Part shown: positions 8,005 to 45,918 of the stretch, piece by piece | How positions within the stretch are numbered: the first letter of the stretch is position 1 | Layout of the letters: each line of letters opens with the position of its first letter | Origin: a virus | Taxonomy: Duplodnaviria > Heunggongvirae > Uroviricota > Caudoviricetes | Length of the DNA: 48,575 nt | IMG/VR virus record: IMGVR_UViG_2582581022_000007 | Span: 1 to 48,575 of that record | Direction: 5' to 3' (one strand) | Position numbers and translations under genes: made by a program | The notes under the pieces: model-generated | Databases searched by the model: none | What the model saw: the letters and a program-made list of their open reading frames with translations, nothing else | What the model was told of the DNA's origin: nothing

Positions 8005-8300
8005 CGGATATCGATGACGAAGCCCGCAAAGCAGAGCTTGACGCTAAACAGCAACTTCTGGCGCAGCGCGACATTGACGACATTCAGTTTGTCATGGGTA
8101 GCGAGCAGGGCCGCCGCGTGATCTGGTCACTGCTTGAGAAAGGTCAGGTGTTCGGTGCTTGCTTCAACGTAGATCCACACATCACAGCATTCAACGAAGG
8201 GCAGCGCAACCTGGCTCTGGTTCTTTTTCAGCGCGTCATGGCGCACTGCCCCGATCAGTATCTGAAGATGGCCGCAGAGGCCGGAGAGGACAATTTATGA
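8001..8300 (+). CDS. hypothetical head-assembly protein
   Basis: ATGA overlap with portal stop; in structural operon. Confidence 0.5.
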   Translation: MTDIDDEARKAELDAKQQLLAQRDIDDIQFVMGSEQGRRVIWSLLEKGQVFGACFNVDPHITAFNEGQRNLALVLFQRVMAHCPDQYLKMAAEAGEDNL

Positions 8301-19995: not shown

Positions 19996-22541
19996 TGGCT
20001 AACGAATTTCTTACGCAATGCGAAATGACCGTCAATGCAGCTGCCGGGCGCAAGCTGTCTGATGACGAAATGGAATCTTTGGTGCGTGACATGAACGACA
20101 CCACAAACCGGATACTGGCTGGTAATGAAGCACTGACGCTGGAAGAAGCAGCGATGCGCGCCGCGCAGGAGCTTGGTAATCGCGAGCAACTGGCTAAAGT
20201 CATTGAGGCACGGAATAAGGCCATTAATACCCGTATTGCAGCTCAGCGCCTTGGCGAGCTTCGCCGGACTTGGAAAGACCGTCCTGACATCGGTCTGGAG
20301 GCTATTCTTGTCGGACGTAATGACGCGCGCACTGGTTCCCGCCGCTCGGTATCCTCTGAGGTTGCCCAACTGCGCGGTAAGTATCATGCTGGTATCAACT
20401 ATGATTTCGACCAGGCAGGACTGGTTAAATTTATTGCCAGTGGCAGCAATGACCGCGAGATAGCCGACGCCATGTGGCGCATTGGCCGCGGACAGAAAAC
20501 GGACGGTATGACGCCGCAATCAGTCAGTGCCGCTAAGATCATCATGAAGTGGCAGGAAACTGCGCGCGTGGATGAAAACCGTGCTGGTGCCTGGATTGGT
20601 AAGATGCCTGGCTACATCGTCCGGCAGTCGCATGACATACTGAAAATCCGTGCCGCCGGGTATGAATCCTGGCGCAATACCATTCTGCCGCGGCTGGATG
20701 ATGCCACCTTTGACGGGATCACAGACCGAGAAGGGTTCCTGCGTGGTGTCTACGACGGCCTTGCCTCCGGTGTGCACCTTACCTCTGAAAAACCAGACTG
20801 GATGAATGGCTTTAAGGGATCGGCGAATGCGGCCAAACGAGCCAGCCAGGAGCGGGTGTTGCACTTCAAAGACGGTGTTAACTGGCACGAATACAACGAG
20901 CAATTCGGAACTGGCAGCCTGCGTGAGGCAGTATTCGGCGGACTGAACAGCGCGGCGCGCACTACGGGCATGATGCGCGTGCTTGGTACCAACCCGCAGA
21001 ACATGTTCAAGTACCTGACAGACACCATCGCAAAAGACGTGAGCAAGCAGAGCAACCCTTCGGCGCTGGCTGATTTCATGACCAAGGTGCGCCGCCTGAA
21101 TCGCACGGTTATGCCACAGGTTGATGGATCGCTGAATATCCCCGGCAGTGTTGGCTGGGCTAATGCCTCAGCCAACGTGCGCGGCTGGCTGCGTATGAGT
21201 CAGCTTGGAGGAGCGGTCATTTCATCTTTTAACGACGTGCCAATCTCGGCGACAGAAATGCGGTATCAGGGCCAGAACTTCATGCAGGCGCTGACCGGCG
21301 CGATGAAGGGGCGCTTTTCCCGCTACACCAGTGATGAGCAGAAGGAGATCCTTTCATCTATCGGCGTTTACTCCGACACGATGACGCAGGAAATCATCCG
21401 TCGCATGTCTGGCGACGACAGCATGAGCGGCAAGATGGGGCGTGCGCAGCAGCTATTCTTCAAATACAACCTTATGAACTTCTGGACAGAATCCGGGCGT
21501 AACAGCAACGCCATGATGATAACAAACTGGCTGGCGAAGAACGCCGATCAGCAATTTTCTGCACTGCCGGAGGACCTGCGCCGCGTTCTGGACCTGCACG
21601 GCATAGGTGACGCTGAATGGAATATCTACCGCAGCATGGACATGGCAGACAGCGAAGGCCGCAAATTCATGACGACCAGCGGAATTCGTGGCGTTCCGGA
21701 TGAGGTGATAGCCTCATATGTTGAAGGAAAAGGCATGAAGGTCACCGAGCGATCTATTGCCGATGCGAGAGACACGCTGGAAAGCCAACTTCGTGGGTAT
21801 ATTCTTGACCGACTAAACATCGCTATGTCAGAGCCGGGAGATCGTACGCAGGCGTTTATGAAGATGGGCACTGTACCAGGAACAGTAGCTGGGGAGGCAA
21901 TACGTTTCGCTGGTCAGTACAAATCGTTCACTGCGAGTTTCATGCAGAACGTGCTTGGACGTGAGGTATTCGGGCGCGGTTATACTCCCGCTGGCCTGGG
22001 TGAATCAAAAACAGGATCGCTGACGAATGCGCTGCTGCGTAACGGAAAAGGTGCATTCTTGGGGGCGGCAAACCTGTTCGTCTGGGCAACCATGTTTGGC
22101 TATATCTCTATGCAGTCGAAACTATTGCTTAAGGGGCAGACGCCGCGTCCGGCAGATGCCAAGACATTCCTCGCAGCCGCATCTCAGGGCGGCGGCCTAG
22201 GCATCTTGGGCGACTTCATGTTTGGCGAAGTCAATCGCATGGGTGCTGGTCCAGTGACATCATTGATGGGGCCAGCCGCGTCGAACGCTGATAGCATTAT
22301 CACGCTGTTCCAGCAGACAACGCGCGGCGATGCAGACCTGGGTGACTGGTATCGCACCGCGCTGGACAATACGCCTTTCCTTAACGTGTTCTGGCTGCGC
22401 ACAGCAATGAATGGTTTAATATTGAACCGTATACAGGATGCTCTTGACCCTGGATCACTGGAGCGCTATCAGCGCCGTGTTGAACGGGAGCAGGGTAACG
22501 ACTTTCTGATCCCACCATCGCAGTTCATGCTAGGGAAGTAA
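19995..22541 (+). CDS. internal virion/ejection protein (putative)
   Basis: 848 aa; ATGG overlap with previous stop. Confidence 0.45.
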   Translation: MANEFLTQCEMTVNAAAGRKLSDDEMESLVRDMNDTTNRILAGNEALTLEEAAMRAAQELGNREQLAKVIEARNKAINTRIAAQRLGELRRTWKDRPDIGLEAILVGRNDARTGSRRSVSSEVAQLRGKYHAGINYDFDQAGLVKFIASGSNDREIADAMWRIGRGQKTDGMTPQSVSAAKIIMKWQETARVDENRAGAWIGKMPGYIVRQSHDILKIRAAGYESWRNTILPRLDDATFDGITDREGFLRGVYDGLASGVHLTSEKPDWMNGFKGSANAAKRASQERVLHFKDGVNWHEYNEQFGTGSLREAVFGGLNSAARTTGMMRVLGTNPQNMFKYLTDTIAKDVSKQSNPSALADFMTKVRRLNRTVMPQVDGSLNIPGSVGWANASANVRGWLRMSQLGGAVISSFNDVPISATEMRYQGQNFMQALTGAMKGRFSRYTSDEQKEILSSIGVYSDTMTQEIIRRMSGDDSMSGKMGRAQQLFFKYNLMNFWTESGRNSNAMMITNWLAKNADQQFSALPEDLRRVLDLHGIGDAEWNIYRSMDMADSEGRKFMTTSGIRGVPDEVIASYVEGKGMKVTERSIADARDTLESQLRGYILDRLNIAMSEPGDRTQAFMKMGTVPGTVAGEAIRFAGQYKSFTASFMQNVLGREVFGRGYTPAGLGESKTGSLTNALLRNGKGAFLGAANLFVWATMFGYISMQSKLLLKGQTPRPADAKTFLAAASQGGGLGILGDFMFGEVNRMGAGPVTSLMGPAASNADSIITLFQQTTRGDADLGDWYRTALDNTPFLNVFWLRTAMNGLILNRIQDALDPGSLERYQRRVEREQGNDFLIPPSQFMLGK

Positions 22542-22542
22542 T

Positions 22543-22914
22543 ATGAACAGAATTATATTAATGACTCTTCTTATTTTTTTTGTTGGAAAAGCTTCTGCTG
22601 ATACTACATCACCTTTAATGATTCAGCCTAAAAATGGAGAAACATTGGAGGATTCTAAAAAGCATACAATGGAATACTTTGGATGCATAAAAGGGCAGGC
22701 TGTAAAGTATGCCAAGACAGGAGAAAGTGTTGATTCCATATCAAAAGCTTCGGTTGTGTCATGCGAGTCATATATACCAATGATCGCCGAGTCGAATATA
22801 TATTATTTAAACTCTTCGCAAGATGGTAAGCGGCAATTTACAGAAAGGCTAAAATCTGATGGTGAGAGATTAGCCACAAAATTTGCCATGGATGAGAAGA
22901 TTAAAAATAAATAG
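22543..22914 (+). CDS. secreted protein with N-terminal signal peptide (moron)
   Basis: MNRIILMTLLIFFVGKASA signal-like N-terminus; markedly AT-rich relative to flanking structural genes. Confidence 0.55.
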   Translation: MNRIILMTLLIFFVGKASADTTSPLMIQPKNGETLEDSKKHTMEYFGCIKGQAVKYAKTGESVDSISKASVVSCESYIPMIAESNIYYLNSSQDGKRQFTERLKSDGERLATKFAMDEKIKNK

Positions 22915-22922
22915 GTGACCAC

Positions 22923-23219
22923 ATGCAAGCTATTGGTTTCATTGTTTACATAGTTGTTGGTCTTTTTCAGTTGGCTGCGATCATGGCTGGTCTTGAATCG
23001 TGGTGGGGACTGCACTGGATAGTGGCCGCACCCATTGCTTTCATCGTTAGTTATATCCCTTTGGTCGGTTCCATTGTTGGAATGGTTGGCGCTGTCGACG
23101 TATGGCGTTGGGAATGGTGGCAGGCAGGGCTTCTTTTCTTTGGCGGCCTGGTTTTTGCTATTGCGTGCGGGGGGATGTCTTCGTTCTTCGAATGGCTATC
23201 CTTCAGGAAAAGAGCGTGA
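22923..23219 (+). CDS. small inner-membrane protein (moron; possible superinfection-exclusion function)
   Basis: 98 aa, mostly hydrophobic with Trp-rich loops; stop codon embedded in palindrome copy 3. Confidence 0.5.
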   Translation: MQAIGFIVYIVVGLFQLAAIMAGLESWWGLHWIVAAPIAFIVSYIPLVGSIVGMVGAVDVWRWEWWQAGLLFFGGLVFAIACGGMSSFFEWLSFRKRA

Positions 23220-23228
23220 CATGTCACA
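23215..23228. promoter_or_regulatory. GTGACATGTCAC palindrome, copy 3
   Basis: 12-mer at 23216-23227 overlapping TGA stop and abutting terminator. Confidence 0.4.
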
Positions 23229-23256
23229 AAGGCCGCCGAAGCGGCCTTAATTTTTT
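23229..23256 (+). terminator. rho-independent terminator
   Basis: AAGGCCGC-cgaa-GCGGCCTT hairpin followed by AATTTTTT. Confidence 0.7.
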
Positions 23257-23407
23257 AACGCCCGCCAGGACGAGAATCGGCAGAACGACCACCGCAGCGT
23301 GATCCATCCGAAGCCGTATCGCTGTCATGCTGGCAGTTTCCAGCAAAAGCTTGTGTAGCAGAACCCAGAGAAAACAGAACAAACAGCACTGCTAATGCTT
23401 TTTTCAT
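23255..23407 (-). CDS. small secreted peptide (50 aa) with signal peptide
   Basis: Not in ORF track (<60 aa); my translation MKKALAVLFVLFSLGSATQAFA-GNCQHDSDTASDGSRCGGRSADSRPGGR; weak RBS. Confidence 0.3.
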   Translation of the reverse strand: MKKALAVLFVLFSLGSATQAFAGNCQHDSDTASDGSRCGGRSADSRPGGR

Positions 23408-23475
23408 TTCTTATTTCCATGTGTAGGCCAATAAATTATGGCGAAGAATTGTAGCGCGTCCATGCGCTACCGTCA

Positions 23476-24165
23476 TCAGAACTTACCAGCCATGCTGTTG
23501 ATGTACTGCGTATGAGTCTGGATATCGCGCAGGCATTTACTGGCGCCGACAATATAGCTCATCATGGCCGCGAACTCTGCTACAGCACCTTCAACATCAT
23601 GCCCGTCGGAATCCAGTTGGCGCAGCAGGTTCATCATCAAAGAGTGCTCTCTCAAACCAAGAACACCTTCAGGTGAATGGATGTGTTCACGGTAGTTTGG
23701 CTTGAGTGGGGCGCTGTATTCCTGTTTCTCTTCCGTCTTCATCGCTTCCAGAATGGCGGGCATGAAGCTGGCTACAACCTTTTGCGCTTTGTCTGCCGGT
23801 GATAATTCTTCACGAACGTATCGACCAGTGCGGCGGATTTGCGGAAGAACGTCGCCAGTTACCCATTTGCGGAAACGATAGGGGATAGTACCAGGAGTTA
23901 CCGCATCGCGGCAGCGCAGGATCAGAGTGTAGAGGCCGGATTCAGAGATGATGAGGGTATTAGGGTTCCCTCGTTTTCCGTCGGTTAAAGCGACGGTATT
24001 CTTTTCGTCGTCATCCAATTTAAGCAGAGCATCACGGTTGTTTGATATACCAAGAGCATTACATACATCTAACGCAATAAACCATGGCTCGCCGTCGATG
24101 ATGATTGCACGAATATCGGCTTGCGATTCGAAAGAAAAAACTGAAGTATTTTTTTGAGTTGTCAT
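23476..24165 (-). CDS. phage antirepressor (Bro-N/AntA-like N-terminal domain)
   Basis: N-terminal FSFESQADIRAIIIDGEPWFIALDVCNALGI resembles Bro-N/AntA; start set at ATG 24165 with GGTGA RBS. Confidence 0.7.
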   Translation of the reverse strand: MTTQKNTSVFSFESQADIRAIIIDGEPWFIALDVCNALGISNNRDALLKLDDDEKNTVALTDGKRGNPNTLIISESGLYTLILRCRDAVTPGTIPYRFRKWVTGDVLPQIRRTGRYVREELSPADKAQKVVASFMPAILEAMKTEEKQEYSAPLKPNYREHIHSPEGVLGLREHSLMMNLLRQLDSDGHDVEGAVAEFAAMMSYIVGASKCLRDIQTHTQYINSMAGKF

Positions 24166-24323
24166 AGTGATCACCTTTTAGTCTGGTTAATCACCACCGG
24201 AGGTTCCAATCTCGGAGGTGGTGAACTGTGCAGGGTTGGAACTACCGGCTAAAAGGACCCGGCGCACCTTTCGGTGCCCCCACACAGCCCACCATAATGC
24301 GAATGTGGCCGTGCTTAACGCAT

Positions 24324-24343
24324 AAAAAAACCGCTTGCGCGGT
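24324..24343 (-). terminator. rho-independent terminator on minus strand
   Basis: Minus-strand ACCGCGCAAGCGGT hairpin followed by TTTTTTT. Confidence 0.5.
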
Positions 24344-24480
24344 GAATGCGCCTTTTAGTATCCGGGGTTCCAATCCCGGCACTGGATTTTGCCAGTGCCT
24401 GATCACTATGGCACAAGTATTTTGCGTTGTAAATTTACCGTAAAGGTAATAATAAACGCATTATGTAGGTTATTTCAACC

Positions 24481-24741
24481 TTATGTGGTTTGTCTGCGTA
24501 GCTGTTCAACGCAGTAGTCGAGATGCGTTTGCACATCCTTCATGGACAACTGCGAGCTGGTGACATAGTTCACCAGTGCAGTAAGTTCGGCCAGCGGCCC
24601 GTCGACGTTGAATCCGTCTTTATCAAGTTCCCGCAATAAAGTCATAAGGTGCGAGTTCTCCACCAGGGATATAACGCCTCCCGGCGTGTGTACTCTTTCA
24701 TAAAATCCATCTTCCAGTGGGTGGTGATACCGCTGTTGCAT
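24481..24741 (-). CDS. stand-alone paralog of the antirepressor C-terminal domain (86 aa)
   Basis: SLVENSHLMTLLRELDKDGFNVDGPLAELTALVNYVTSSQLSMKDVQTHLDY parallels LGLREHSLMMNLLRQLDSDGHDVEGAVAEFAAMMSYIVGASKCLRDIQTHTQY of 23476..24165; ATG 24741 with GGAGAA RBS. Confidence 0.5.
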   Translation of the reverse strand: MQQRYHHPLEDGFYERVHTPGGVISLVENSHLMTLLRELDKDGFNVDGPLAELTALVNYVTSSQLSMKDVQTHLDYCVEQLRRQTT

Positions 24742-24936
24742 TAACCATTCTCCATACAAACACTGTATATATATACATATATCAGATGAACCACTGTTTC
24801 ACCAGTATGATTTTTAATTACCTGTGAGGTAATAACTTTGTTGATTACATCTCGTGCGATTCATATATGGTTCGTTGGGTAATAGAATAACCAGTAGTGC
24901 GGTGCGCCGGGTGCTGCGACTTTCTGGAGTTTAAAC

Positions 24937-27648
24937 ATGACGGTCTCAACCGAAGTTGACCACAATGACTACACGGGTAACGGGGTCACGACATCATTCC
25001 CATATACCTTCCGAATTTTTCATAATCATGATCTGGTGGTGCAGGTTGTTGACCTGAGCGAAAACATCACTGAATTAACACTGGACACAGATTACACGGT
25101 GACAGGTGCTGGCGGATATACTGGCGGGAATGTTGTTTTATCGTCGCCTCTTGCCAATGGTTATCAGATTTCGATATCCAGAGAGTTACCGGTTACCCAG
25201 GAGACCGATCTCAGAAATCAGGGTAAGTTTTTCGCAGAAGTGCATGAGGATGCTTTTGATAAGTTAACCATGCTGATACAGCAGGCAATTAGTTGGCTGC
25301 GCCTTTCTTTACGTAAGCCGTCTTTTATTGCAAATTATTATGATGCCCTGGGTAACTACATACGAAATCTTCGTGACCCGTCACGACCACAGGATGCAGC
25401 TACAAAAAATTACGTTGACGGGGTTGCTGAAGGTAACATTTCTTATGCAGATTCTCTATTTAAAAGAACCTTAAGAGTTCCTGAGGATTATGTTGACCAG
25501 ATACCATCAAATGCTGATAGATCAAATAAAATACTTGCTTTTGATTCTGGAGGTAAACCGATTGCTGTTTTACCTGAATCTGGTTCTGCTTCAGATGTTT
25601 TAATTGAGCTGGCAAATAACGGTGATAAAAAAATTGGTAGCTCATATGGTGGCACAGTTTATAGCGACTACCAACAATCAATTTTTGTCAAAAAAGGAGA
25701 TTTTTATTCCGGTTTAAGCATATCGGGAAAAGATGATGCCTACCTTTTTTCTGATGGGCTATGGTATGTATGGACTGGCGCATTACCGCACACGATCTTG
25801 TCGGGTGAAACTCCTGATGTAGAAACAACTAAATGGGCTTGTGTAGGCCTGCTTAATGGGCATGAAATTTGTTCTGCTCTTAACTATAGCGATTCATGGG
25901 GCATCCATGATGATTCACCATTACTTCGCAAAGCCATCATTAGTTTAATAAGAACTGGATATGCAAGATTTTGCATTAACGCTGGCGTTACTATTAACCT
26001 TTTTACTGATTGCGAAATTCCGTTCTATCTGGATGGGAGGGCTGTGTCTTTCCGTTTTCATGGAGAAACAGCAATTGGTTCTTTAGGAAGAGTGTCAGAA
26101 CTAGTAGTAGCTCTAGGTATTAGAGGTCTTGTATTCGAGGCTATTCAAGTAGAGATTGACCATTTCACTATGCGTCAGTGGGTTGGTAATGCTGGGCAGT
26201 CTATTGTCAGTTATACATCTGATACAGTTACGCTATCTTTTGACCCATGGCCTGACGGACGCACCCCAGTGATATGGCCTTGGGGAACTACTGCTGGTGA
26301 TGGCACTGTTTACACAAGCTTTTTAGAATTTAAAACTGACAGTGGTGGTTATTACGCATCTGGCGTAACTCGCAACTTAGATGGAACCGTAACACTAACC
26401 AATGTCCATCCTATTGGGCCAACTAATACAATCGCTTCCGCAACGATTGTTAACTTTTTCCAGAGTCATGCTAATAACTATCCAGAAGGAAGTTTCGCAG
26501 ATACGGCAGCAGTAATCACCCTGGGGGTATCAGAAAACCCATTTATTCATAACTTATGGGTGCTTGCTGTCTATCGAGGCTTTGCTCACGGTCTTGGCTC
26601 TGGAGCAGGTCCGGGAGTATTGATGGGAAATATCGGCGTATGGTCTGATATTGTCGTAGACAACGCTTTATACTTTATAGCTAATACTGATGTGAATCCA
26701 TCATCTGGGCAAGGCATCAACAATGGGATGTTCAATAACATTCAGTTATCAAACGTCCGTCGTGGAATAAGAGCACGTAGAGCCTACAATCTTGCATTCA
26801 CAAACCTTCAGCATATTGCTAGCGGTAATGTTTCATTTGATGCTGTTACTATACTGGCAAATGAAATAGAAGGTGTTACTTTAAATGGATCTCAGTTTGG
26901 TTGGACATCTATCGACTGGGTTATAGATACATGGGTTCCTAAACTACTCAAGTGTACCCGATTACGTCGCTCCTCTATTACTGGATGCGTGTTCGGTCGA
27001 CATGATGTAACCATCACAAGAGGTGCCGTAATTGACGTTAAGGACGGCACAATACTAGGTTTAACACTAACTGGTAATTCTATGGTTACAATCGACGAAA
27101 ACTCAGATTCAAGTAACTATGGATGGATTGAGTGTAATGAGCTTAAATCATCAGTTATTTCTGATAACTCCCCTAGTTCAGGTAGTGAGCTTGGTGGAAG
27201 CATTAATCTCTCGCTGAGAACTGCTTCTAATGACTTAACAAAATTTGATAACACATATTTTGGTCAACCAGTCAGAACAAACGCAGAAGCTGGTGTGTTT
27301 GATAATGAACTAGCATCCGGTGGAAATGTTTTTGACAGCACAACTGAATACAGAGACGCAGGTAAAATTTTAATCTTTGTTGATGTAAACAATGCTGCTG
27401 TATGGCCTGATAATTCAAGGAATATCATACCATTCGGCGGAGGATTAACAGGAGGTAAAACACTTGGATTGCCTACCCCAGCAGTACTCCTGTCATTGAA
27501 AAGAAGAAGTGTTCTGGTTGATTTGTCATCTGTGGTTTTTGGTAGCCAGACAATTGGAGTGTATAACGGGGCAACTTTGGTATCAACAATATCAACTCCT
27601 GGTGTTTATGAGTTTCTCCTCGTAGGGGCAAAATACATAAAATTATAA
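24937..27648 (+). CDS. tailspike / tail fiber with conserved podovirus N-terminal anchor and AT-rich variable receptor-binding region
   Basis: N-terminus MTVSTEVDHNDYTGNGVTTSFPYTF is the phage tail-fibre head-binding motif as I recall it; 903 aa; composition drops to AT-rich after ~residue 170; terminator follows. Confidence 0.8.
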   Translation: MTVSTEVDHNDYTGNGVTTSFPYTFRIFHNHDLVVQVVDLSENITELTLDTDYTVTGAGGYTGGNVVLSSPLANGYQISISRELPVTQETDLRNQGKFFAEVHEDAFDKLTMLIQQAISWLRLSLRKPSFIANYYDALGNYIRNLRDPSRPQDAATKNYVDGVAEGNISYADSLFKRTLRVPEDYVDQIPSNADRSNKILAFDSGGKPIAVLPESGSASDVLIELANNGDKKIGSSYGGTVYSDYQQSIFVKKGDFYSGLSISGKDDAYLFSDGLWYVWTGALPHTILSGETPDVETTKWACVGLLNGHEICSALNYSDSWGIHDDSPLLRKAIISLIRTGYARFCINAGVTINLFTDCEIPFYLDGRAVSFRFHGETAIGSLGRVSELVVALGIRGLVFEAIQVEIDHFTMRQWVGNAGQSIVSYTSDTVTLSFDPWPDGRTPVIWPWGTTAGDGTVYTSFLEFKTDSGGYYASGVTRNLDGTVTLTNVHPIGPTNTIASATIVNFFQSHANNYPEGSFADTAAVITLGVSENPFIHNLWVLAVYRGFAHGLGSGAGPGVLMGNIGVWSDIVVDNALYFIANTDVNPSSGQGINNGMFNNIQLSNVRRGIRARRAYNLAFTNLQHIASGNVSFDAVTILANEIEGVTLNGSQFGWTSIDWVIDTWVPKLLKCTRLRRSSITGCVFGRHDVTITRGAVIDVKDGTILGLTLTGNSMVTIDENSDSSNYGWIECNELKSSVISDNSPSSGSELGGSINLSLRTASNDLTKFDNTYFGQPVRTNAEAGVFDNELASGGNVFDSTTEYRDAGKILIFVDVNNAAVWPDNSRNIIPFGGGLTGGKTLGLPTPAVLLSLKRRSVLVDLSSVVFGSQTIGVYNGATLVSTISTPGVYEFLLVGAKYIKL

Positions 27649-29880: not shown

Positions 29881-31071
29881 ATGTTGACTGACACCAGGCT
29901 GCGTCACCTTAAGCCGAAGGAGAAACTCTATAAAGTTAATGACCGTGATGGTCTGTATGTTGCGGTCACTCCGGCTGGAACTATTTCATTTCGTTATAAC
30001 TATTCAATAAACGGAAGACAGGAGACCGTTACTTTTGGCCGCTATGGTGTTGGAGGGATCACGCTTGCAGAAGCGCGTGAACGGCTCAATGAAGCTAAAA
30101 AAATGGTTGCCAGTGGAAGATCGCCAGCGAGGGAAAAAGCTAGAGATAAAGCTCGTATCAAAGATGCGGAGACTTTTGGTGCATGGGCTGAGAAATGGTT
30201 ACGCGGTTATCAAATGGCTGAATCGACGCGTGATATGCGGCGTTCGGTATATCAAAGGGAGTTGAAGTCAAAATTTGCGCAGCAGAAATTGACCGAGATT
30301 ACACATGAAGACTTACGCGCATTAACCGATAACATTGTCGAGAGAGGGGCACCGGCGACAGCTGTGCACGCCAGAGAGATTGTATTGCAAGTCTATCGCT
30401 GGGCTATTGAGCGCGGTCAGAAGGTTGAGAATCCCGCTGATCTGGTACGGCCTGCAAGCATAGCGAAATTTGAGCCTCGTGACAGGGCATTGACGCCAGT
30501 TGAAATTGGTCTGATGTATCGGTACATGGAACGGGTAGGAACGACGCCATCAATCAGAGCAGCGGTTAAACTTTTGCTGTTAACGATGGTACGTAAAAGT
30601 GAGCTTACTAACGCAACCTGGAACGAGATCAATTTTAGTGAGGCATTATGGACGATACCAAAGGAGAGGATGAAACGACGTAATCCACATTTGGTTTTTC
30701 TTTCCAGACAGGCAATGGATATTATGATTGCTCTCAAAACCTTTGCCGGTAGCTCTGATTTTATCCTTCCTTCGCGGTACGATTCCGATGCGCCAATGAG
30801 TAGCGCTACTTTAAACCGGGTTTTGACACTGACGTATCGTCTGGCTCAGAAAGAAGGGGACTTGTTACCTAAGTTTGGTCCCCATGACTTACGGCGTACT
30901 GCCAGCACCTTGCTACATGAGGCCGGGTACAATACTGACTGGATTGAGAAGTGCCTTGCCCATGAACAAAAGGGGGTACGAGCTGTTTATAACAAGGCTG
31001 AATATCGTGAGCAGAGGGCCGAGATGCTACAAGATTGGGCGAATATGATTGATGAATGGACTAGTAAGTAG
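29881..31071 (+). CDS. int: tyrosine recombinase/integrase, P4-type
   Basis: N-terminal arm-binding-like region (RLRHLKPKEKLYKVNDRDGLYVAV); C-terminal catalytic signature HDLRRTASTLLHEAGY...CLAHEQKGVRAVYNKAEY. Confidence 0.9.
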   Translation: MLTDTRLRHLKPKEKLYKVNDRDGLYVAVTPAGTISFRYNYSINGRQETVTFGRYGVGGITLAEARERLNEAKKMVASGRSPAREKARDKARIKDAETFGAWAEKWLRGYQMAESTRDMRRSVYQRELKSKFAQQKLTEITHEDLRALTDNIVERGAPATAVHAREIVLQVYRWAIERGQKVENPADLVRPASIAKFEPRDRALTPVEIGLMYRYMERVGTTPSIRAAVKLLLLTMVRKSELTNATWNEINFSEALWTIPKERMKRRNPHLVFLSRQAMDIMIALKTFAGSSDFILPSRYDSDAPMSSATLNRVLTLTYRLAQKEGDLLPKFGPHDLRRTASTLLHEAGYNTDWIEKCLAHEQKGVRAVYNKAEYREQRAEMLQDWANMIDEWTSK

Positions 31072-31978: not shown

Positions 31979-32401
31979 TTTGGGCATATTTGGACTTAAA
32001 TGCCACCGACATGATTCTAATAATTAAGCCAGTACCTAATGAGCCAAGAGAAGACAACTGTAAACGCCCCTTGGCTTAGACTTGCTTTCAGGAAAGCGAA
32101 TGCTTTTTATGGTCAGGGACAAGTAAGGGGATGAGCCATTGCATAACCATAAAACCAATTCGTTCTATGTCATTACAGATCGGCTTCAGTGATTTACTGG
32201 TGAGGTAGTATCACTGTGATCCGTTTTGCATAACGCTTACAGCTGCGCTACAAACAATAAACTATAATACTGTATTTTCAAAATCATCAATTTGAAGCAG
32301 GGTAATCGCGAAAAACCCTCGTAAGTGGCTGGTTATAATTCAATAAAGTGGATGATATTAAGACTTAAACTGCCACCATAATAGCTCGTGGATATACTAT
32401 T

Positions 32402-33373
32402 TTAAATATAAAATTCTTTCCTCACAGACGCTAAGGCCTTGGACACAGCCTGCTTTGTCATAGTTGTGTAGTGATTTTTTTCTAAAACCTGTGCGGTTTC
32501 AAACTGGTTAAAACCTTGGTGTTTTAATATGATTATTTTTTTCTTAGTATCAGTGAATTTGGAGTCAACCATTCGTCTGGCAATATTCCTAAGTTTATCT
32601 AGATCTGCTGGGGTTAAAGTTTGACCCTGCATCCACTCATGAAAATAGGTATCAATCAATATATCCCCTGTGTTTGCGTTAGCTTTATGCGGTTTAGCGC
32701 ATTGCCGTCTAAGCCTTATTAATTCTTTATTGAACTGTTCGAGAGACCGCTTTCCTTGTCTGTATTTGGGATTCCATAGACCATTGGTGAGTTTGGGCCT
32801 ATGGTCAGAACAATATCGATGACTAAGGACCTGTTTTTCATGAACGGGGAACTCATTATCGTTAGCAACAAATTCTGATATCTCACTGATCAACTTGGAA
32901 AATTCGGTTAGATTACCGCAGAACTCGCAATAACCGAGCTTACGCTGTGAATTTATAGTTACTCCTTTTGCAGGAGAGGATTTCTTCGGCCGCTTGGATG
33001 CGCACTCACTGACTAATTCAATAAGAGACTCAATCGTAGCGGTAAAGCATTTATCAAGAGAAGTTTGTTGATCTAAAGTCAGAACGAAATTACGCAAAAG
33101 AAGTCTTTGTGCCTGTACTACGACGTTTAAGCCCACTTTTTTAAGTACATCACTAAATCCTAGATTTACTCCAGAAATGTAGTCTTTATGACTTGGTGGC
33201 AGGGAATTTACATAAGCAGCTACTGCTGGATCAATAACTTCCTGTATGAGACGCAGTATTGGATACCTCCGTGAAAATATGGAGTACGGATAACTACGCT
33301 CTACAAATAATTTAATTGCAGCTGCAACTGTGAGGTCACAGCCTTCCCAGATAGTAATTTTCATGTCAACCAT
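32402..33373 (-). CDS. hypothetical regulator-like protein with Cys/His cluster and C-terminal HTH-like segment
   Basis: AT-rich ORF divergent from alpA; CEFCGN...CSDH cluster; start set at first ATG not overlapping alpA; no convincing RBS. Confidence 0.4.
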   Translation of the reverse strand: MVDMKITIWEGCDLTVAAAIKLFVERSYPYSIFSRRYPILRLIQEVIDPAVAAYVNSLPPSHKDYISGVNLGFSDVLKKVGLNVVVQAQRLLLRNFVLTLDQQTSLDKCFTATIESLIELVSECASKRPKKSSPAKGVTINSQRKLGYCEFCGNLTEFSKLISEISEFVANDNEFPVHEKQVLSHRYCSDHRPKLTNGLWNPKYRQGKRSLEQFNKELIRLRRQCAKPHKANANTGDILIDTYFHEWMQGQTLTPADLDKLRNIARRMVDSKFTDTKKKIIILKHQGFNQFETAQVLEKNHYTTMTKQAVSKALASVRKEFYI

Positions 33374-33450
33374 TTTAGCCAATGAATAGGTTTTAGCAAG
33401 TGGTAATGCTTGGCATTGTATAGGCCTGATTGGAAACAGGAGGAAGGCAG

Positions 33451-33681
33451 ATGCAAACAAAGGCACATAGCACGCTCATTAACAGAAAAACACTTCTGGA
33501 AATGATCCCATTGTCAGCCCGCACTATTTATAACCTTGAACAGCGAGGCGAGTTTCCTCGCCGTATAGCACTTACTAGTCGAAATGTTGCATGGCAGTTA
33601 TCCGAAGTGGAACAGTGGATTGCGGATCGTAAATCAGCAATGTTTAAAGCGGCCAGACCCGGTGTTGTTTTAGGTAGGTAA
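33451..33681 (+). CDS. alpA: AlpA-family transcriptional regulator (prophage CP4-57 regulatory protein type)
   Basis: ~76 aa with LLEMIPLSARTIYNLEQRGEFPRRI HTH; AGGAGGAAGG RBS before ATG 33451. Confidence 0.75.
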   Translation: MQTKAHSTLINRKTLLEMIPLSARTIYNLEQRGEFPRRIALTSRNVAWQLSEVEQWIADRKSAMFKAARPGVVLGR

Positions 33682-33686
33682 CAGCA

Positions 33687-34544
33687 ATGTCATTGAACAT
33701 AATGGAAGCATTTGAAGCTAAGCCACAACCAATTGATTACGTCTTGCCTAATTTGGCTATTGGTACTATCGGAGCGATTGTTTCTCCGGGAGGCGCTGGA
33801 AAGTCAATGCTGGCATTACAATTGGCTGTGCAGATTACTTGTGGTGTAGATCTTTTAAACTTTGGTGAATATCCGACTGGGTTGGTGGCATATTTACCTG
33901 TGGAGGACTCTGAAACCATCGTTCACCATCGTTTATATGCGTTGGGAAAATATCTAACAGCACGTCAGCAGCAGATTGTAGCTGATAAGCTACTGGTCGA
34001 ACCTTTGGTAGGGAAGTGTCCAAATATTTTCTTGCCGGATTGGAGCAACTTGATCAATGAAGTTTCAAAAGGTAGACGTTTAATAATTTTGGATACTCTT
34101 CGCCGTTTCCACCAGGAGGATGAGAATAATAGCGCAGCAATGTCCAAAGTCATTGGAAAGCTAGAAGGTATTGCTGCTGATACTGGATGTTCGATTATAT
34201 TTCTACACCATTCAAACAAAGGCGCTGCCACGATGGGGGTTGGTGATATACAGCAGGCAAGCAGGGGTAGTAGCGTCCTGGTTGATAATATACGGTGGCA
34301 ATCTTATCTGGCGGGCATGACCGCCTTGGAAGCGAAGACGTATGGTATTTCTGATGATGTTCGAGGTCAATTTGTTAGATTTGGAATAAATAAAGTAAAT
34401 TATGGAGAACGTGCGCCAGATCGTTGGTTACAGAGACATGAGGGGGGAGTATTAAAAATAACGGCGCTCAGCTCGAAGAATAATAAAAAGCTTACTAAAG
34501 AAAGAACATCTACCTGGAGTGGCGCTGACAATGACAACTGGTAA
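33687..34544 (+). CDS. RecA-fold P-loop ATPase (AAA_25/RepA-like)
   Basis: Walker A IVSPGGAGKSMLALQLA, Walker B-like RLIILDTL, IIFLHHSNK; typical partner of alpA in integrative islands. Confidence 0.6.
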   Translation: MSLNIMEAFEAKPQPIDYVLPNLAIGTIGAIVSPGGAGKSMLALQLAVQITCGVDLLNFGEYPTGLVAYLPVEDSETIVHHRLYALGKYLTARQQQIVADKLLVEPLVGKCPNIFLPDWSNLINEVSKGRRLIILDTLRRFHQEDENNSAAMSKVIGKLEGIAADTGCSIIFLHHSNKGAATMGVGDIQQASRGSSVLVDNIRWQSYLAGMTALEAKTYGISDDVRGQFVRFGINKVNYGERAPDRWLQRHEGGVLKITALSSKNNKKLTKERTSTWSGADNDNW

Positions 34545-35313
34545 TAAAGTGGCACCCACAAGTACAGCTTGGCAAGCCCGAGTAATTCTGTACCAGCCAA
34601 GCCAGCGTCCTAAGGAGGTGAAGGGACAATGGATGGAGACTAGTTTTGGTCGTTGTCGTGTTACCGGACGGCTCGGACAGCGTCATGCCGATATCGTAGA
34701 GACAATATTATATGTTGCCGAGCAACGTCGTGAAATTTCTGATGGTGGAATCGAATTATTAGTAGATCCAGCGAAAGTACGCCGAACGCTATCCGATGCA
34801 CAATACAGTTATGGTCGTATACAGAAATTGCTTTTAGATCTGCGCGTCGCAACAGTTGAAATTATAACGCCAGAGCTGGAGAAAAGCGGCGACTGTATAA
34901 TAGGGGGACTGATCGATCATGTAGTGCCATCACCTATGACGCGTCCAGATCCTTTGACTGGGGGAGAACGCCGTTTATGGCGTGTCCGTCTGGGTGTTGC
35001 ATTAGCGATGTTACTCAAAAAAGATTTGCCATTTTATTATCATCCTGGCCCCATAGCTCGGCTACAACATGGTATTAGCCAGGCAGTCGCTCGTCATGTC
35101 TTAACCCATAGTAATAATCCTTTAGGAGGGTGGTATATGGATACGTTGATATTAGCAGTATGCGGTGAAGGAACGAGTAATATGACTTTACGTAACTATC
35201 GTCGGAGATTGAAAGAAGATTCCGTGCAATTGCTGGAAATTGGAATTGATTTGAACGGTTCTAGGATAAAACGTGTCACAACGGCCCGATATTGTGTCAC
35301 AACGGCCCGATAG
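34519..35313 (+). CDS. hypothetical protein, possibly replication-associated (3' end overlaps iteron array)
   Basis: 264-aa ORF; last ~40 nt lie within 21-bp iterons; start codon uncertain (GTG 34519 or ATG 34531). Confidence 0.35.
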   Translation: MALTMTTGNKVAPTSTAWQARVILYQPSQRPKEVKGQWMETSFGRCRVTGRLGQRHADIVETILYVAEQRREISDGGIELLVDPAKVRRTLSDAQYSYGRIQKLLLDLRVATVEIITPELEKSGDCIIGGLIDHVVPSPMTRPDPLTGGERRLWRVRLGVALAMLLKKDLPFYYHPGPIARLQHGISQAVARHVLTHSNNPLGGWYMDTLILAVCGEGTSNMTLRNYRRRLKEDSVQLLEIGIDLNGSRIKRVTTARYCVTTAR

Positions 35314-35356
35314 CGTGTTATAGCGGCCCGGTAGCGTGCTACAGCGGCCCGATTTT
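35273..35356. repeat. iteron-like array, 4 tandem 21-bp repeats (GTGTCACAACGGCCCGATATT and variants)
   Basis: Units at 35273, 35294, 35315, 35336 share GTG-yyAyAgCGGCCCGrTa core; followed by AT-rich region with GATC sites. Confidence 0.7.
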
Positions 35357-35564
35357 TTACTATTCAGCAGTATTTACAGGATCGTTCAGGATCTACAGTC
35401 TTTGAAATCACCTGCCTGAGCAGGCGCTTTCAAATCTAGAATCGGCCAAAGGCCGATGGTTGTACGCCAGAAGAAGAGATTACTTACTCGTTTGGTATAT
35501 TGACACTTGAGGTAGGTTTTATGACATATGAGGTACGCCCCTAGCTTTAGGCATAGGGAGGAAG

Positions 35565-35581
35565 ATTTTAGCCGCTAAAAT
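35565..35581. promoter_or_regulatory. KorB operator-like perfect palindrome ATTTTAGCCGCTAAAAT, copy 3
   Basis: Identical 17-mer to copy 1; ~400 bp upstream of mobC-like gene. Confidence 0.5.
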
Positions 35582-35970
35582 CTGCAATGCACATGCTTTG
35601 ACAATGTAAGTAAAAAAGTGCATGAGAAAATAAAATATTTCTTACAATATATCGAAACATAAATACAGTTGGTGGACGCCCATTTATAACTACTAAAGGT
35701 CATTTTCAAAAGGGAGAAATATAGTTTCCTTGCAAGAAACACATTTGCTGCAGATCTTTACCCGAGTAATCCTATATTAATACGCTAAGAAAACACATCC
35801 TGTACACTGAAATACACATTGATGTGCACAGATATACTACGGCAACAGGAGGGCAGGACATGTAAAGTAGGCCCACCGCTACGGTGTTCCAACTTTACCA
35901 CTCCCTATTCGCCGCATCGCGGCTCAAGGGCGTCCTGCTCTGCCAGGCTACCGCCTGTATGGAGAGCTAT

Positions 35971-36324
35971 ATGAAAGTTACTCAGACTAGAAAAAATAGT
36001 ACGCCAATAAAAGTTTATTGTTTACCCGAAGAAAAAATTCTCATCCAAGAAAATGCAGAAGCATCTGGATTAAGTGTTGCCTGTTTTGTTCGTAGAGTTG
36101 CAATGGGTTATCAGGTTGATTCTATCGTAGATATAAAACAGGTTAATGAACTTAGCCGAGTAAACGCTGATCTTGGAAGACTTGGCGGATTACTTAAATT
36201 ATGGCTCGCAAATGATCCTCGAACAGTTGATTTTTCACCCACCCTGATAAGAACCTTGCTTGCGAAAATAGAATCAACTCGGCAAGAACTAAGGAACATT
36301 ATGGATAAAATCTTGGATAAATAA
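35971..36324 (+). CDS. MobC-like ribbon-helix-helix mobilisation accessory protein (putative)
   Basis: 117 aa from ATG 35971 (GGAGAG RBS); IKVYCLPEEKILIQENAEASGLSVACFVRRVAMG resembles relaxosome RHH proteins. Confidence 0.45.
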   Translation: MKVTQTRKNSTPIKVYCLPEEKILIQENAEASGLSVACFVRRVAMGYQVDSIVDIKQVNELSRVNADLGRLGGLLKLWLANDPRTVDFSPTLIRTLLAKIESTRQELRNIMDKILDK

Positions 36325-36405
36325 ATGTGTGGTTTCCTATATACCTGCGTCTGTTAAAAGACAGTGTGTTAAATATTACTGAACTGATGAAAAAGAGGTG
36401 AGCAA

Positions 36406-37200
36406 ATGAATTTAATGTTCCGAGTGGTTTCATTACAAAGAGGGATTTTAGCCGCTAAAAAAGCTTTAATAGTTCCTTTCGTGGCGTCCGTCATGGCATT
36501 ACCGGTTAAGGCCGGAATTCCCGTTATTGATGGCACTAATGTGGTTCAGACCACAATCAGCGCAGTTAACAACGTTCAGGCTGTGACTAAACAGATCCAG
36601 CAGTACCAGACGCAGCTGCAGCAGTATGAAAACATGCTCAAAAATACCGTCGCACCTGCGGCCTATATCTGGGATCAGGCCAATTCAACCATCAACAAAT
36701 TGTTGCAGGCGCAGGACACTCTTAATTACTACAAAAATCAGGCCGGGAGTCTTGATTCATATCTGAAACGTTATCAGGACGTGAATTACTACCGCTCATC
36801 ACCGTGCTTTAACAGTAATGTTGAATGTACTGCAGATGAAATCAGCGCACTGCGTAAAGCAGAACAGAACAGCTCTGAGGCGCGTAAAAAGGCCAATGAC
36901 GCCGTTTTTAAGGCTCTTGATGAACAGCAAGAAACACTGCAAAGCGATGCTGATAACCTGGCAGATTTGCAAACTCAGGCAACCGGCGCACAAGGGCAAA
37001 TGGAAGCTATTCAGGCCGCTAACCAGCTTGCAAGTGCTCAAACGAACCAGCTGCTGCAAATCCGCTCGCTCCTGGTAGCCCAGCAAAACGCTGCAGCAAC
37101 ACTGGCACAGGCTCAGGCAGATAAAGAATCACAACAGATAGCCGCTGATGAAAAAGCGTTAGCTGGAGAGAATACACCAAGCCCGAAGCGAATTTGGTGA
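36406..37200 (+). CDS. trbJ: TrbJ/VirB5-like type IV secretion protein
   Basis: Signal peptide, Q-rich coiled-coil (QIQQYQTQLQQYENMLKNT), ~260 aa, followed by small lipoprotein and TrbL-like gene as in IncP trbJ-trbK-trbL. Confidence 0.6.
   Translation: MNLMFRVVSLQRGILAAKKALIVPFVASVMALPVKAGIPVIDGTNVVQTTISAVNNVQAVTKQIQQYQTQLQQYENMLKNTVAPAAYIWDQANSTINKLLQAQDTLNYYKNQAGSLDSYLKRYQDVNYYRSSPCFNSNVECTADEISALRKAEQNSSEARKKANDAVFKALDEQQETLQSDADNLADLQTQATGAQGQMEAIQAANQLASAQTNQLLQIRSLLVAQQNAAATLAQAQADKESQQIAADEKALAGENTPSPKRIW
36445..36461. promoter_or_regulatory. KorB operator-like palindrome, copy 4 (ATTTTAGCCGCTAAAAA), inside trbJ 5' end
   Basis: 16/17 palindrome; encodes ILAAK within the putative signal peptide. 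Confidence 0.4.
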
Positions 37201-37211
37201 GGAAACGCAGA

Positions 37212-37385
37212 ATGAAAGATAATCTTTTGATTGTATTTATTCTGATCAGTTTATTGGCCATATGTTCTTGCGATAAAAATGATAAAGATTGTTTATCGAC
37301 GCCAGATAATAAATTTGATGAAAATAAATACGATAAATGTGCTCTACGGAGTAATAATAAACCAAGCCCTAAACGAGAATGGTAA
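37212..37385 (+). CDS. trbK: small lipoprotein, TrbK-like (entry exclusion) by position
   Basis: MKDNLLIVFILISLLAICSC signal/lipobox-like N-terminus, 57 aa, between trbJ-like and trbL-like genes. Confidence 0.45.
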   Translation: MKDNLLIVFILISLLAICSCDKNDKDCLSTPDNKFDENKYDKCALRSNNKPSPKREW

Positions 37386-38779: not shown

Positions 38780-38860
38780 ATCATGTGCGTCAGTTAACGA
38801 GGTAGCGTGAGCTGACGCTTTCACTGTGCGAACTTTACTCCTGCAATTCAAAGGAAAAAC

Positions 38861-39325: not shown

Positions 39326-39514
39326 CTGCTCTTCACATGTCATGAATGTTAGAATATTTGTTCAAAGTCATTTCTTCAGAGCAAAATTTTTAATAGCGGA
39401 TAGAAAAATGCAAGGTATGTTGGAAAAATAAACGAAGCGAGTACGCAAACGTCTTGAAATGCAGTAACATCATTCCGCCACACTGGCAGTTGGCTAACGG
39501 CGAAAGGAGTTCAT

Positions 39515-45916: not shown

Positions 45917-45918
45917 AA

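Follow-up and report, generated by a model that had tools for sequence, protein, structure and literature searches.

We analysed the antirepressor region of a 48,575-nt stretch of viral DNA (IMG/VR record IMGVR_UViG_2582581022_000007), referred to here in its full length as the window. The phage is an epsilon15-like podovirus assigned to Uetakevirus, and its antirepressor region is placed between the last block of virion or injection-type genes and the tailspike gene. A first-pass annotation had described an antirepressor control region with injection-type genes on one side and the tailspike gene on the other; this position is borne out, whereas the likeness to P22-like phages that it drew is not. 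Two protein-coding genes define the region:

23476-24174, minus strand: Bro-N::Ant-like fusion antirepressor (GTG start, 232 aa; likely true start ATG 24165, 229 aa)
24481-24741, minus strand: small antirepressor Ant of SPC32H type, 86 aa, with Shine-Dalgarno GGAG at 24750-24753

The larger gene had been read as a Bro-N-type antirepressor gene, which is confirmed by matches of its product to the Pfam Bro-N domain (PF02498, E = 1.9e-20, 73.7 bits vs a gathering score of 25.6) and to PHROG 130, 'anti-repressor Ant' (E = 4e-52). The Bro-N domain spans residues 21-111 of the 232-aa GTG-start ORF, or about 18-108 counted from ATG 24165. Through its C-terminal part (residues 126-230) the protein also matches phrog_1760 ('anti-repressor', a 232-aa profile), and a C-terminal domain at residues ~148-222 (from the ATG) is homologous to Ant of phage SPC32H, with a match to 5D50_E at E = 5.7e-16. 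The 86-aa minus-strand ORF had been noticed as a paralog of this C-terminal part alone, and BLASTP agrees (41% identity, E = 1e-22, for a 75-aa alignment to Ant residues 150-224). Both proteins share phrog_450, and small Ants aligned with fused C-domains have 27 invariant columns. No Pfam or NCBIfam family covers the shared domain, which is represented only by PHROG 450, 15539 and 1760. The same fusion is found in 58 of 91 related loci, making it the commonest architecture of this phage group. With this Ant-like domain at its C-terminus, the Bro-N protein is most likely directed against the same class of repressors as small Ant.

As judged by its sequence, the 86-aa ORF is a full-length ortholog of the SPC32H-type antirepressor Ant, of the same length and ~81% identical (Kim and Ryu 2013; Kim et al. 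2016; PDB 5D50, 5D4Z), and neither a relic nor a decoy. A phmmer search of the PDB aligned residues 1-86 of 86 with 5D50 chain E, 'Anti-repressor protein' (E = 5.4e-45), phrog_450 was matched at E = 1.4e-44, and the SPC32H counterpart, SPC32H_020, is annotated ant. Citing papers report that SPC32H Ant forms a tetramer which engages two Rep dimers at the Rep C-terminal domain. In SPC32H, as in the window, ant adjoins the tailspike gene; a LexA box precedes it in SPC32H and a candidate box in the window. Unlike the window, SPC32H has neither a c4 cassette nor a Bro-N antirepressor. Homologs of small Ant share 60-91% identity among Enterobacteriaceae prophages, and conservation of this degree across genera argues that the gene is no relic. 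A Bro-N partner is absent beside small Ant in SPC32H and at ~23 of 91 related loci, so that governing the large antirepressor cannot be its primary role. Gifsy LexA-controlled antirepressors (GfoA, GfhA and others) were considered as relatives of small Ant and rejected, as no sequence link was found.

Three candidate protein-binding sites flank the small gene:

24761-24780, minus strand: candidate LexA (SOS) box of small ant, ATATGTATATATATACAGTG, with a 16-nt core at 24763-24778
24817-24833: perfect palindrome ATTACC-N5-GGTAAT, a candidate Rep operator, where the small ant and tailspike genes diverge
24434-24450: Rep-operator-like palindrome ATTACCTTTACGGTAAA (minus-strand reading, 1 mismatch), abutting the -35 hexamer of the isrK/c4 promoter

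The core of the candidate LexA box ends 21 nt upstream of the small ant ATG. In the window this box is degenerate (ATGT-N8-ACAG), its left arm reading ATGT where CTGT, as in SPC32H, is expected; homology suggests that LexA may still bind this variant. Of 84 related loci, 81 place a box 17-21 nt ahead of the ATG: 72 of these 81 carry the canonical TACTGT-N8-ACAGT, with invariant arms and a variable spacer, and the other 9 carry the ATGT variant. All eight chromosomal prophages that encode an identical small Ant protein (8/8) have the variant box. SPC32H and SPC32N, a natural pair, differ by one base in the LexA box (ACAG vs AAAG); this single substitution, in the arm opposite to the one altered in the window, reportedly renders SPC32N constitutively lytic. 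Given that the window box has a substituted conserved CTG trinucleotide, LexA control in this lineage may be weak or supplemented. As a counterpoint, the ATGT variant occurs in stable chromosomal prophages. The promoter scan gave no convincing sigma-70 promoter for small ant.

Allowing at most one mismatch, the palindrome occurs 4 times in the window (vs 0.06 expected); it gives 9 hits in phiV10 (vs 0.42) and 18 in SPC32H (vs 1.07), where it forms three-fold clusters on either side of rep and occurs once in the ant-tailspike region. At 24434-24450 the arms TTACC...GGTAA are invariant among 51 unique related sequences while the 5-nt spacer varies. We infer that Rep binds these palindromes, by homology with the related phages; the rep gene itself lies outside the window. 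The repressor of the related phage phiV10 shares 42% identity with SPC32H Rep; its only domains are of the HTH kind, and an S24 peptidase domain is absent.

The 315-bp 'leader' between the two antirepressor genes is an RNA cassette of the P1/P7 immI type and Gifsy-1 isrK type, with a promoter, an IsrK-like sRNA (decoys b1 and a1 and a leaky terminator), a C4 antisense RNA and the ant leader (b2 and a2) in this order:

24405-24433, minus strand: cassette promoter TTTACA, 17 nt, TG-n-CATAGT, from the promoter scan, with a predicted start near 24398
24324-24398, minus strand: IsrK-like leader sRNA (a1b1 element), Rfam RF01394, 76.1 bits vs a gathering score of 50
24378-24399 (24379-24398 within the IsrK-like RNA), minus strand: third (5') hairpin, GGCACUGG-CAAAAU-CCAGUGCC, from the fold
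24362-24379, minus strand: b1 hairpin with 8-nt loop AUUGGAAC (b1 = 24367-24373), from the fold
24351-24358, minus strand: a1 site CUAAAAGG, within the IsrK-like RNA
24343-24330, minus strand: intrinsic terminator ACCGCGCAAGCGGT followed by 7 T (7 U in RNA), from the promoter/terminator scan
24214-24299, minus strand: C4-family antisense RNA, Rfam RF01695, 77.1 bits vs a gathering score of 45, matched over the whole model (1-87)
24249-24256, minus strand: a' site CCUUUUAG, loop of C4 hairpin 2, from the fold
24236-24242, minus strand: b' site GUUCCAA, single-stranded in C4, from the fold
24171-24223, minus strand: ant leader and target region, from the sequence and its complementarity to C4
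24192-24223, minus strand: b2 hairpin with loop AUUGGAAC (b2 = 24203-24209), from the fold
24174-24181, minus strand: a2 site CUAAAAGG, overlapping the ant Shine-Dalgarno AAGGUGA (24171-24177)

These signals stand far above chance, with 76-77 bits to two Rfam covariance models and with motifs that are kept and covary across 62 related loci. The c4-a1b1 model RF03163 scored 42.1 bits, just under its gathering score of 46.7. The cassette promoter is kept in all related loci and aligns with the position of the Gifsy-1 isrK promoter (TTGACA-17-TATATT); the predicted start near 24398 corresponds to position 1 of the Rfam isrK model. No separate C4 promoter was found in the promoter scan between the isrK terminator and C4. 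Much of this interval had been perceived in the first-pass annotation as isolated elements: the minus-strand terminator between the genes, the two related stem-loops and the third hairpin with GGCACUGG and CCAGUGCC arms were all recovered here. The two stem-loops, described there as centred on GGTTCCAATC, are the b1 and b2 hairpins, whose 8-nt loops are identical (GGTTCCAATC in the plus-strand reading) and whose complement lies inside C4. That complementary copy of the motif, GUUCCAA in the C4 gene, had been overlooked, as had the C4 RNA itself.

The minimum free energy (MFE) fold of C4 (-45.8 kcal/mol) has a 17-bp closing stem around two hairpins, as in the family. An RNAalifold consensus of 12 diverse relatives contains 22 pairs, three of them with double compensatory changes and many with G-C to G-U changes. 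Site a' is complementary to a1 and a2 over 8 nt, and b' to b1 and b2 over 7 nt. When an explicit complementarity scan assigned the a and b sites, those in C4 and both sets of targets covaried perfectly, three ways, in 51/51 unique sequences, which represent the 62 related loci. Four a-types and four b-types were observed, in at least 10 combinations, and a2 always overlapped the ant Shine-Dalgarno. The CACCACC at the C4 3' end is conserved among related sequences, and alternative folds exist since the b2 hairpin shares this motif with the closing stem of C4. In the MFE fold of the full-length transcript, b1 and a1 pair in cis with a' and b'. No reading frame across C4 is conserved among the 51 related sequences, as frames, starts and lengths vary; two relatives have no ORF of at least 10 aa there, and the window has one 17-aa ATG ORF and one 32-aa GTG ORF in different frames. 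A coupling ORF over C4 of the orf45 or icd kind was therefore rejected.

Two characterised systems resemble the cassette closely. The P1/P7 immI operon (Citron and Schuster 1990) has the order a1 b1 - c4 antisense RNA - a2 b2 - icd - ant. The window has the same one-strand order of decoys, C4-family RNA, targets over the ribosome-binding site and antirepressor, and in both cases specificity resides in two short complementarities that differ among related phages. A further likeness concerns the promoter, where both have an operator-like site for the main repressor. The P1 counterpart is the C1 site at Op51. Unlike P1/P7, the window has an intrinsic terminator between a1b1 and C4, so that a discrete IsrK-like sRNA should be made; it lacks an icd-like ORF, a2 directly covering the ant Shine-Dalgarno; its targets are ordered b then a; and its effector, a Bro-N::Ant-like fusion, has no relation to P1 Ant and is encoded by a podovirus.

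The Gifsy-1 locus isrK - orf45/STnc1160 - anrP has an identical two-RNA cassette with the same order and spacing of isrK, C4 and antirepressor (isrK = 79 bits, C4 = 69 bits). The promoter stands at the same aligned position, the terminator is leaky, the antirepressor start codon follows a2, and even the first four residues of the antirepressor, MTTQ, are common to both. However, the Gifsy-1 a-type is UCACCG/CGGUGA, the orf45 frame across C4 is not kept in the window, AnrP is unrelated to the window Bro-N protein (E = 7.4), and the Gifsy-1 cassette follows a Q antiterminator gene whereas that of the window is near the tailspike gene. In Gifsy-1, experiments (Hershko-Shalev et al. 2016, PMC4825925) demonstrated that read-through driven by the promoter gives a long RNA that is translationally silent, that the short form of IsrK is an activator, and that an RNA named STnc1160 arises by processing. 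Lysogens express both IsrK and STnc1160. The Gifsy-1 mechanism needs translation of orf45 across C4, and as there is no such frame here, that part is not transferable.

The homology of all parts, the RNA structures, the three-way covariation and the operator positions are established in the present analysis, and the whole locus is explained by characterised systems, with no new type of system. These data suggest that the region probably consists of two already-known switches for exit from lysogeny, adjoining one another in an epsilon15-like (Uetakevirus) prophage. The first would likely be a small antirepressor under DNA-damage control and the second an antirepressor restrained by a P1-type small RNA.

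Other readings of the locus differ in what they make of the two proteins and of the RNAs. The first-pass annotation had suggested a dominant-negative or decoy role for the 86-aa protein; it might act in this way on the Bro-N antirepressor by forming mixed oligomers via the shared domain, or else be a non-expressed relic. The two proteins do share a domain with 27 invariant columns, and mixed oligomers are physically conceivable, SPC32H Ant being described in citing papers as a tetramer. Yet we consider either reading very improbable, as the ortholog works as an antirepressor and the structure of its complex has been solved, a candidate LexA box of its own precedes the gene, at a position fixed in 81/84 loci, its sequence is 60-91% conserved across genera, and it occurs without a Bro-N partner in SPC32H and at about a quarter of the related loci (~23/91). 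The Bro-N protein, for its part, could be aimed at something other than the repressor of its own phage, namely the repressors of other prophages, or could have a DNA-binding or host-takeover role through Bro-N. The same RNA cassette drives unrelated effectors elsewhere, such as Gifsy-1 AnrP, the genes downstream of the cassette differ between loci, the fused C-domain is only ~38% identical to the cognate small Ant, and trans-acting antirepressors that cross between prophages are already known. Such a role is nevertheless unlikely, if still worth bearing in mind, given the clear homology of the C-domain to an antirepressor that binds Rep, the predominance of the fusion in the phage group (58/91 loci) and the presence, beside the cassette promoter, of the palindrome characteristic of Rep-controlled regions.

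As for the RNAs, the cassette might work as published for Gifsy-1, with the long RNA locked by pairing of its IsrK part with C4 in cis, the short IsrK serving chiefly to activate in trans, by opening the ribosome site on a small ORF that lies upstream of ant and is translationally coupled to it, and repression by free C4 being secondary. The full-length MFE fold, with its cis pairing of b1/a1 and a'/b', resembles the Gifsy-1 'structure A', the order of elements matches, and the shared CACCACC allows alternative folds. We find this improbable for the window, where no ORF is conserved across C4 and where a2 lies directly on the ant Shine-Dalgarno, which fits direct occlusion as in P1. To a control region of P22 immI type (mnt - arc - ant plus sar), in which ant is under an opposite-strand cis-antisense sar RNA and the Arc and Mnt repressors, we give next to no credence. 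The genomic position is analogous, from late structural genes for injection or internal virion proteins to the tailspike gene; ant would be controlled at the RNA level in both; and hairpins and a terminator precede ant. However, no Rfam match to sar was found at E <= 1 within 22500-25500, the neighbouring small ORFs that were scanned gave no Pfam match to Arc or Mnt and included no other conserved ORF, and the phage is a Uetakevirus. The conserved RNAs lie on the ant strand, match the C4 and isrK models and act through loop complementarities, whereas P22 sar is a full cis-antisense overlap. With sar, arc and mnt all missing, the P22 reading was rejected. The earlier proposal that an antisense RNA and operators govern ant thus stands insofar as a small RNA and operator-like sites are present, and falls as to their P22 type.

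Returning to the two adjoining switches, we think it likely that the locus is a two-input antirepressor hub assembled from two known modules. In the first module, LexA would silence small ant from the box that ends 21 nt ahead of the start codon. DNA damage would lead to LexA cleavage and to synthesis of small Ant, which by homology with SPC32H would bind the C-terminal domain of the non-cleavable Rep, break the Rep tetramer and so induce the prophage. In the second module, transcription would start at ~24398, from the promoter flanked by the Rep-operator-like palindrome, and the short terminator would end most transcripts to yield the IsrK-like sRNA with b1 and a1. The C4 RNA would be carried within read-through transcripts and, by homology, probably excised from them as in P1, where RNase P does this; the lack of a promoter-like site ahead of C4 in the scan and the conserved 3' CACCACC are hints of such processing at the sequence level. 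The direction of regulation, again by homology, would be repressive: a' and b' of C4 would pair with a2 over the Shine-Dalgarno and with b2 in the hairpin loop of the ant leader, blocking translation of the Bro-N antirepressor, and the IsrK-like RNA, which bears the same two sites, could titrate C4 and relieve the block.

More tentatively, both antirepressors may converge, through their common repressor-binding domain, on the same non-cleavable repressor in most epsilon15-like phages. They would then form an OR-gate, opened by LexA cleavage or by loss or titration of C4 and possibly involving mixed oligomers, that merges DNA damage with RNA-based superinfection immunity. C4 would serve as a freely recombining two-part 'immunity barcode' (at least 4 a-types by 4 b-types) independent of repressor specificity, and the ATGT box would reflect altered SOS sensitivity, tolerated in this lineage because a second layer of control exists. 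We regard this as possible rather than probable.

Each module has been characterised before, and current concepts are unchanged. For annotation, a gene labelled 'hypothetical' is the small antirepressor, probably under SOS control, and the 'Ash family protein' and 'hypothetical' calls within the interval are non-coding RNAs. The covarying a- and b-types offer a ready natural data set on the specificity rules of C4-type RNA immunity. Finally, SPC32H represents only the minimal version of the switch, as about three quarters of the sampled relatives add an RNA-gated antirepressor with a homologous repressor-binding domain.

Sequence comparison assigns most of the window to a prophage of the epsilon15/phiV10 group (genus Uetakevirus). 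Positions 23200-24950 matched phiV10, ZX5, Tyrion and TL-2011b at 78-84% identity (megablast), and the gene order agrees with that in those phages' records. The immunity region (rep/cro) falls outside the window, whose left end is already in the Ead/Ea22 region. The antirepressor locus lies on the minus strand between the block of the 848-aa virion gene and the tailspike gene. Our analysis confirms the first-pass annotation's observation of this locus, including the positions of the Bro-N gene, the 86-aa ORF, and the terminator and hairpins of the 315-bp interval, and finds its interpretation partly right.

end at 23219, plus strand: 848-aa virion protein gene and two small genes
23476-24165, minus strand: Bro-N antirepressor gene
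24481-24741, minus strand: 86-aa ORF (small Ant), GGAG 8 nt upstream of the ATG
start at 24937, plus strand: 903-aa tailspike gene
29881-31071: integrase gene
35851-35949: traJ-II RNA
35884-36324: NikA-like mobilisation protein
37379-38779: TrbL/VirB6
39515-40747: ABC-3C system CTD1 protein
41368-43701: SMC-like ATPase, alongside the ABC-3C system CTD1 protein

The last five features belong to another region, of mobile or defence type, that lies right of the integrase gene (32400-47400) and also encodes further AAA_21 ATPases. Elsewhere, a tRNA-Arg gene (anticodon tct; 5477-5553, minus strand) separates the terminase genes from the portal gene, and there is a tRNA-Arg at the corresponding place in phage SPC32H.

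The 86-aa protein is paralogous to the C-terminal part of the Bro-N protein (41% identity to residues 150-224, E = 1e-22), as had been proposed. The accompanying suggestion of a decoy fails, and the protein is no relic: small Ant matches 5D50 chain E, 'Anti-repressor protein', over its full length (phmmer against PDB, E = 5.4e-45). That chain is the Ant of SPC32H, whose gene, SPC32H_020, is annotated ant and occupies the same position adjoining the tailspike gene. Papers that cite the SPC32H work describe Ant as a tetramer that binds two dimers of the phage repressor Rep through the Rep C-terminal domain and breaks the Rep tetramer. The repressor of phiV10 shares 42% identity with SPC32H Rep and lacks a peptidase domain. 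Small Ant is conserved at 60-91% across Salmonella, Escherichia, Citrobacter, Klebsiella and Yersinia prophages, and the exact protein of the window occurs in hundreds of assemblies, complete chromosomes among them.

Kim and Ryu are said to have found in 2013 that LexA represses SPC32H ant and that one base change in the ant LexA box makes SPC32N constitutively lytic. The box reads TACTGTATGTTTATACAGTG in SPC32H versus ...ATAAAGTG in SPC32N, a single change from ACAG to AAAG in the arm opposite the one that varies in the window. There, the candidate LexA box (core 24763-24778, minus strand) has ATGT for the otherwise invariant CTGT of the gene-distal arm. A canonical TACTGT-N8-ACAGT box with a variable spacer lies 17-21 nt upstream of the ATG in 72 of 84 loci, the variant ATATGTATATATATACAGT is present in nine, including the window, and in three the conserved position lacks a box. 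All eight chromosomal prophages that encode an identical Ant carry the variant ATGT box, which is thus compatible with stable lysogeny. Upstream of the box, the window's lineage differs in sequence from other lineages, and a promoter scan upstream of small ant gave no good sigma-70 match. The SPC32H/SPC32N, box-survey, repressor and conservation sequences agree with the account of a LexA-controlled antirepressor.

The proposal of an RNA- and operator-controlled antirepressor region at a P22-immI-like position also stands, but not the type of RNA control, as the interval between the two genes matched the isrK and C4 models instead. The cassette comprises the following elements, all read on the minus strand:

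24433-24405: cassette promoter TTTACA-17-TGnCATAGT, invariant in all loci
24324-24398: isrK (RF01394), Rfam 76.1 bits, above the curated threshold
24378-24399: GGCACUGG/CCAGUGCC hairpin
24362-24379 and 24192-24223: two hairpins with the identical loop AUUGGAAC
24351-24358: a1, CUAAAAGG, after the b1 hairpin, matched by a'
24343-24330: intrinsic terminator, followed by a run of 7 T
24214-24299: C4 antisense RNA (RF01695), Rfam 77.1 bits, above the curated threshold
24249-24256: a', CCUUUUAG, in the loop of C4 hairpin 2
24236-24242: b', GUUCCAA, in a single-stranded stretch of C4, complement of b1 and b2
24174-24181: a2, CUAAAAGG, overlapping the ant Shine-Dalgarno, matched by a'

The predicted start from the cassette promoter, ~24398, is position 1 of the isrK model, and a c4-a1b1 match (RF03163, 42.1 bits, slightly under that family's threshold) overlaps isrK. 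The two GGTTCCAATC hairpins of the first-pass annotation are present and correspond to two target sites, b1 in the IsrK-like RNA and b2 in the leader of ant; their complement in C4, b', had been overlooked. The C4 fold (-45.8 kcal/mol) has a 17-bp closing stem that encloses two hairpins, and compensatory changes occur in the stem among 12 diverse relatives. No reading frame across C4 is conserved among related cassette sequences, so the proteins that some records annotate there ('Ash family protein', 'hypothetical protein') are probably spurious. An 'Ash family protein' annotation or a weak precomputed Pfam Phage_ASH hit lies over C4/isrK in ZX5 (1779-1892), the record L090 (3326-3496) and Hafnia phage yong2.

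Gifsy-1 has the same order of isrK (79 bits), C4 (69 bits) and antirepressor start codon, and the two regions can be aligned throughout, promoter position included. Experiments on Gifsy-1 showed that terminator read-through from the isrK promoter drives the antirepressor gene, that the long RNA is translationally silent, that short IsrK activates it in trans, and that STnc1160 is a processed RNA from the region called C4 by Rfam (Hershko-Shalev et al. 2016, PMC4825925). IsrK and STnc1160 are abundant in lysogens. The founding member, c4 of P1/P7, pairs around a ribosome-binding site and blocks ant expression. The isrK, C4 and Bro-N arrangement has already been noted in APSE phages, and 363 phage records, including many of Stx phages, contain the cassette by blastn. 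The Gifsy-1 effector, AnrP, is unrelated to the Bro-N protein of the window. The cassette is a known, portable regulatory unit whose effector differs between phages.

We favour a reading in which C4 would occlude the ant Shine-Dalgarno directly, because a2 overlaps that site and no orf45-like frame is conserved; the IsrK-like RNA would then compete for C4. It is also possible that the long RNA of the window adopts the 'inactive structure' described for Gifsy-1, as its full-length predicted fold pairs b1/a1 with a'/b' in cis.

The pairings themselves were compared across 80 IMG/VR loci with the small protein gene, plus phage records; 62 of the collected loci have the cassette, in 51 unique sequences. 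Each of these has a C4 loop region complementary, over 7-13 nt, to the upstream as well as the downstream site pair. There are four a-types (CUAAAAGG, CUACAAAGG, CUAAGUGG and CUAGUAGG) and four b-types (UUGGAAC, UUGGCGU, UUGGUCU and UUUGCAC), the window's UUGGAAC being the rarest b-type (5 loci). At least 10 a/b combinations were seen, and the three copies switch together every time. Such covariation of all three copies strongly indicates that the a/b pairings have a function and determine specificity, as they do for P1 versus P7.

A palindrome, ATTACC-N5-GGTAAT, is over-represented 15-60 times, with four sites at no more than one mismatch in the window (0.06 expected), 18 in SPC32H (1.07 expected) and nine in the phiV10 early region (0.42 expected):

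window, 2675-2691, 6007-6023, 24434-24450 and 24817-24833: palindrome sites
SPC32H record (L096), 33527-33681 and 34389-34452: palindrome sites
phiV10 record (L004), 7953-8031 and 8727-8743: palindrome sites

Almost all promoter-like intergenic regions of these phages contain it, and triple clusters flank rep on both sides; in SPC32H, three sites separate rep from the early-left genes, another three fall in the rep-cro interval and one is in the ant-tailspike region. Within the window, the site at 24817-24833 lies upstream of small ant, and that at 24434-24450 lies directly next to the -35 of the cassette promoter, with invariant arms and a variable spacer in all relatives. We take the palindrome to be the probable operator of Rep, scattered through the genome in the manner of the C1 operators of P1. 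In P1, the immI promoter is a site of C1 action, and we infer by analogy that Rep would also repress the cassette promoter.

The Bro-N protein (Pfam Bro-N, E = 1.9e-20; PHROG 130 'anti-repressor Ant', E = 4e-52) likely starts at the ATG at 24165, preceded by AAGGTGA. Its C-terminal ~80 residues match 5D50_E (E = 5.7e-16) and have 27 invariant positions in common with the small Ants in four phages. Of 91 loci, 58 have a Bro-N::Ant-like fusion, 10 have a second Ant-like domain but no Bro-N domain that could be detected, and 23, some of them with short flanks, have small Ant alone. SPC32H lacks both cassette and fusion, and some phages, such as TL-2011b, have an opposite-strand gene inserted between small ant and the cassette, so the two modules are separable. 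In a subset of relatives that includes TL-2011b (2777-3505 and downstream), the inserted gene encodes 242 aa, and the Bro-N gene is followed by one for a YafO-family toxin. The region around ant and the tailspike gene looks like a hot spot where morons insert. A 50-aa ORF in the window (23255-23407, minus strand) has a signal-peptide-like N-terminus, promoter-like sites of its own and a match to phrog_14503 ('membrane associated protein', moron category); its type also directly follows small ant in loci without the C4 cassette.

Both modules belong to characterised families, and the locus type is already known. Judged from the sequences compared, what is modestly new is the apparently free combination of a/b specificity types, the candidate Rep operator at both promoters, and a degenerate LexA box that persists in stable lysogens. 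The distribution among loci points to the LexA-controlled small ant as the core gene and the C4-gated fusion as a common accessory, and, also modestly new, these phages would combine LexA-controlled and C4-controlled antirepressors with a common repressor-binding domain.
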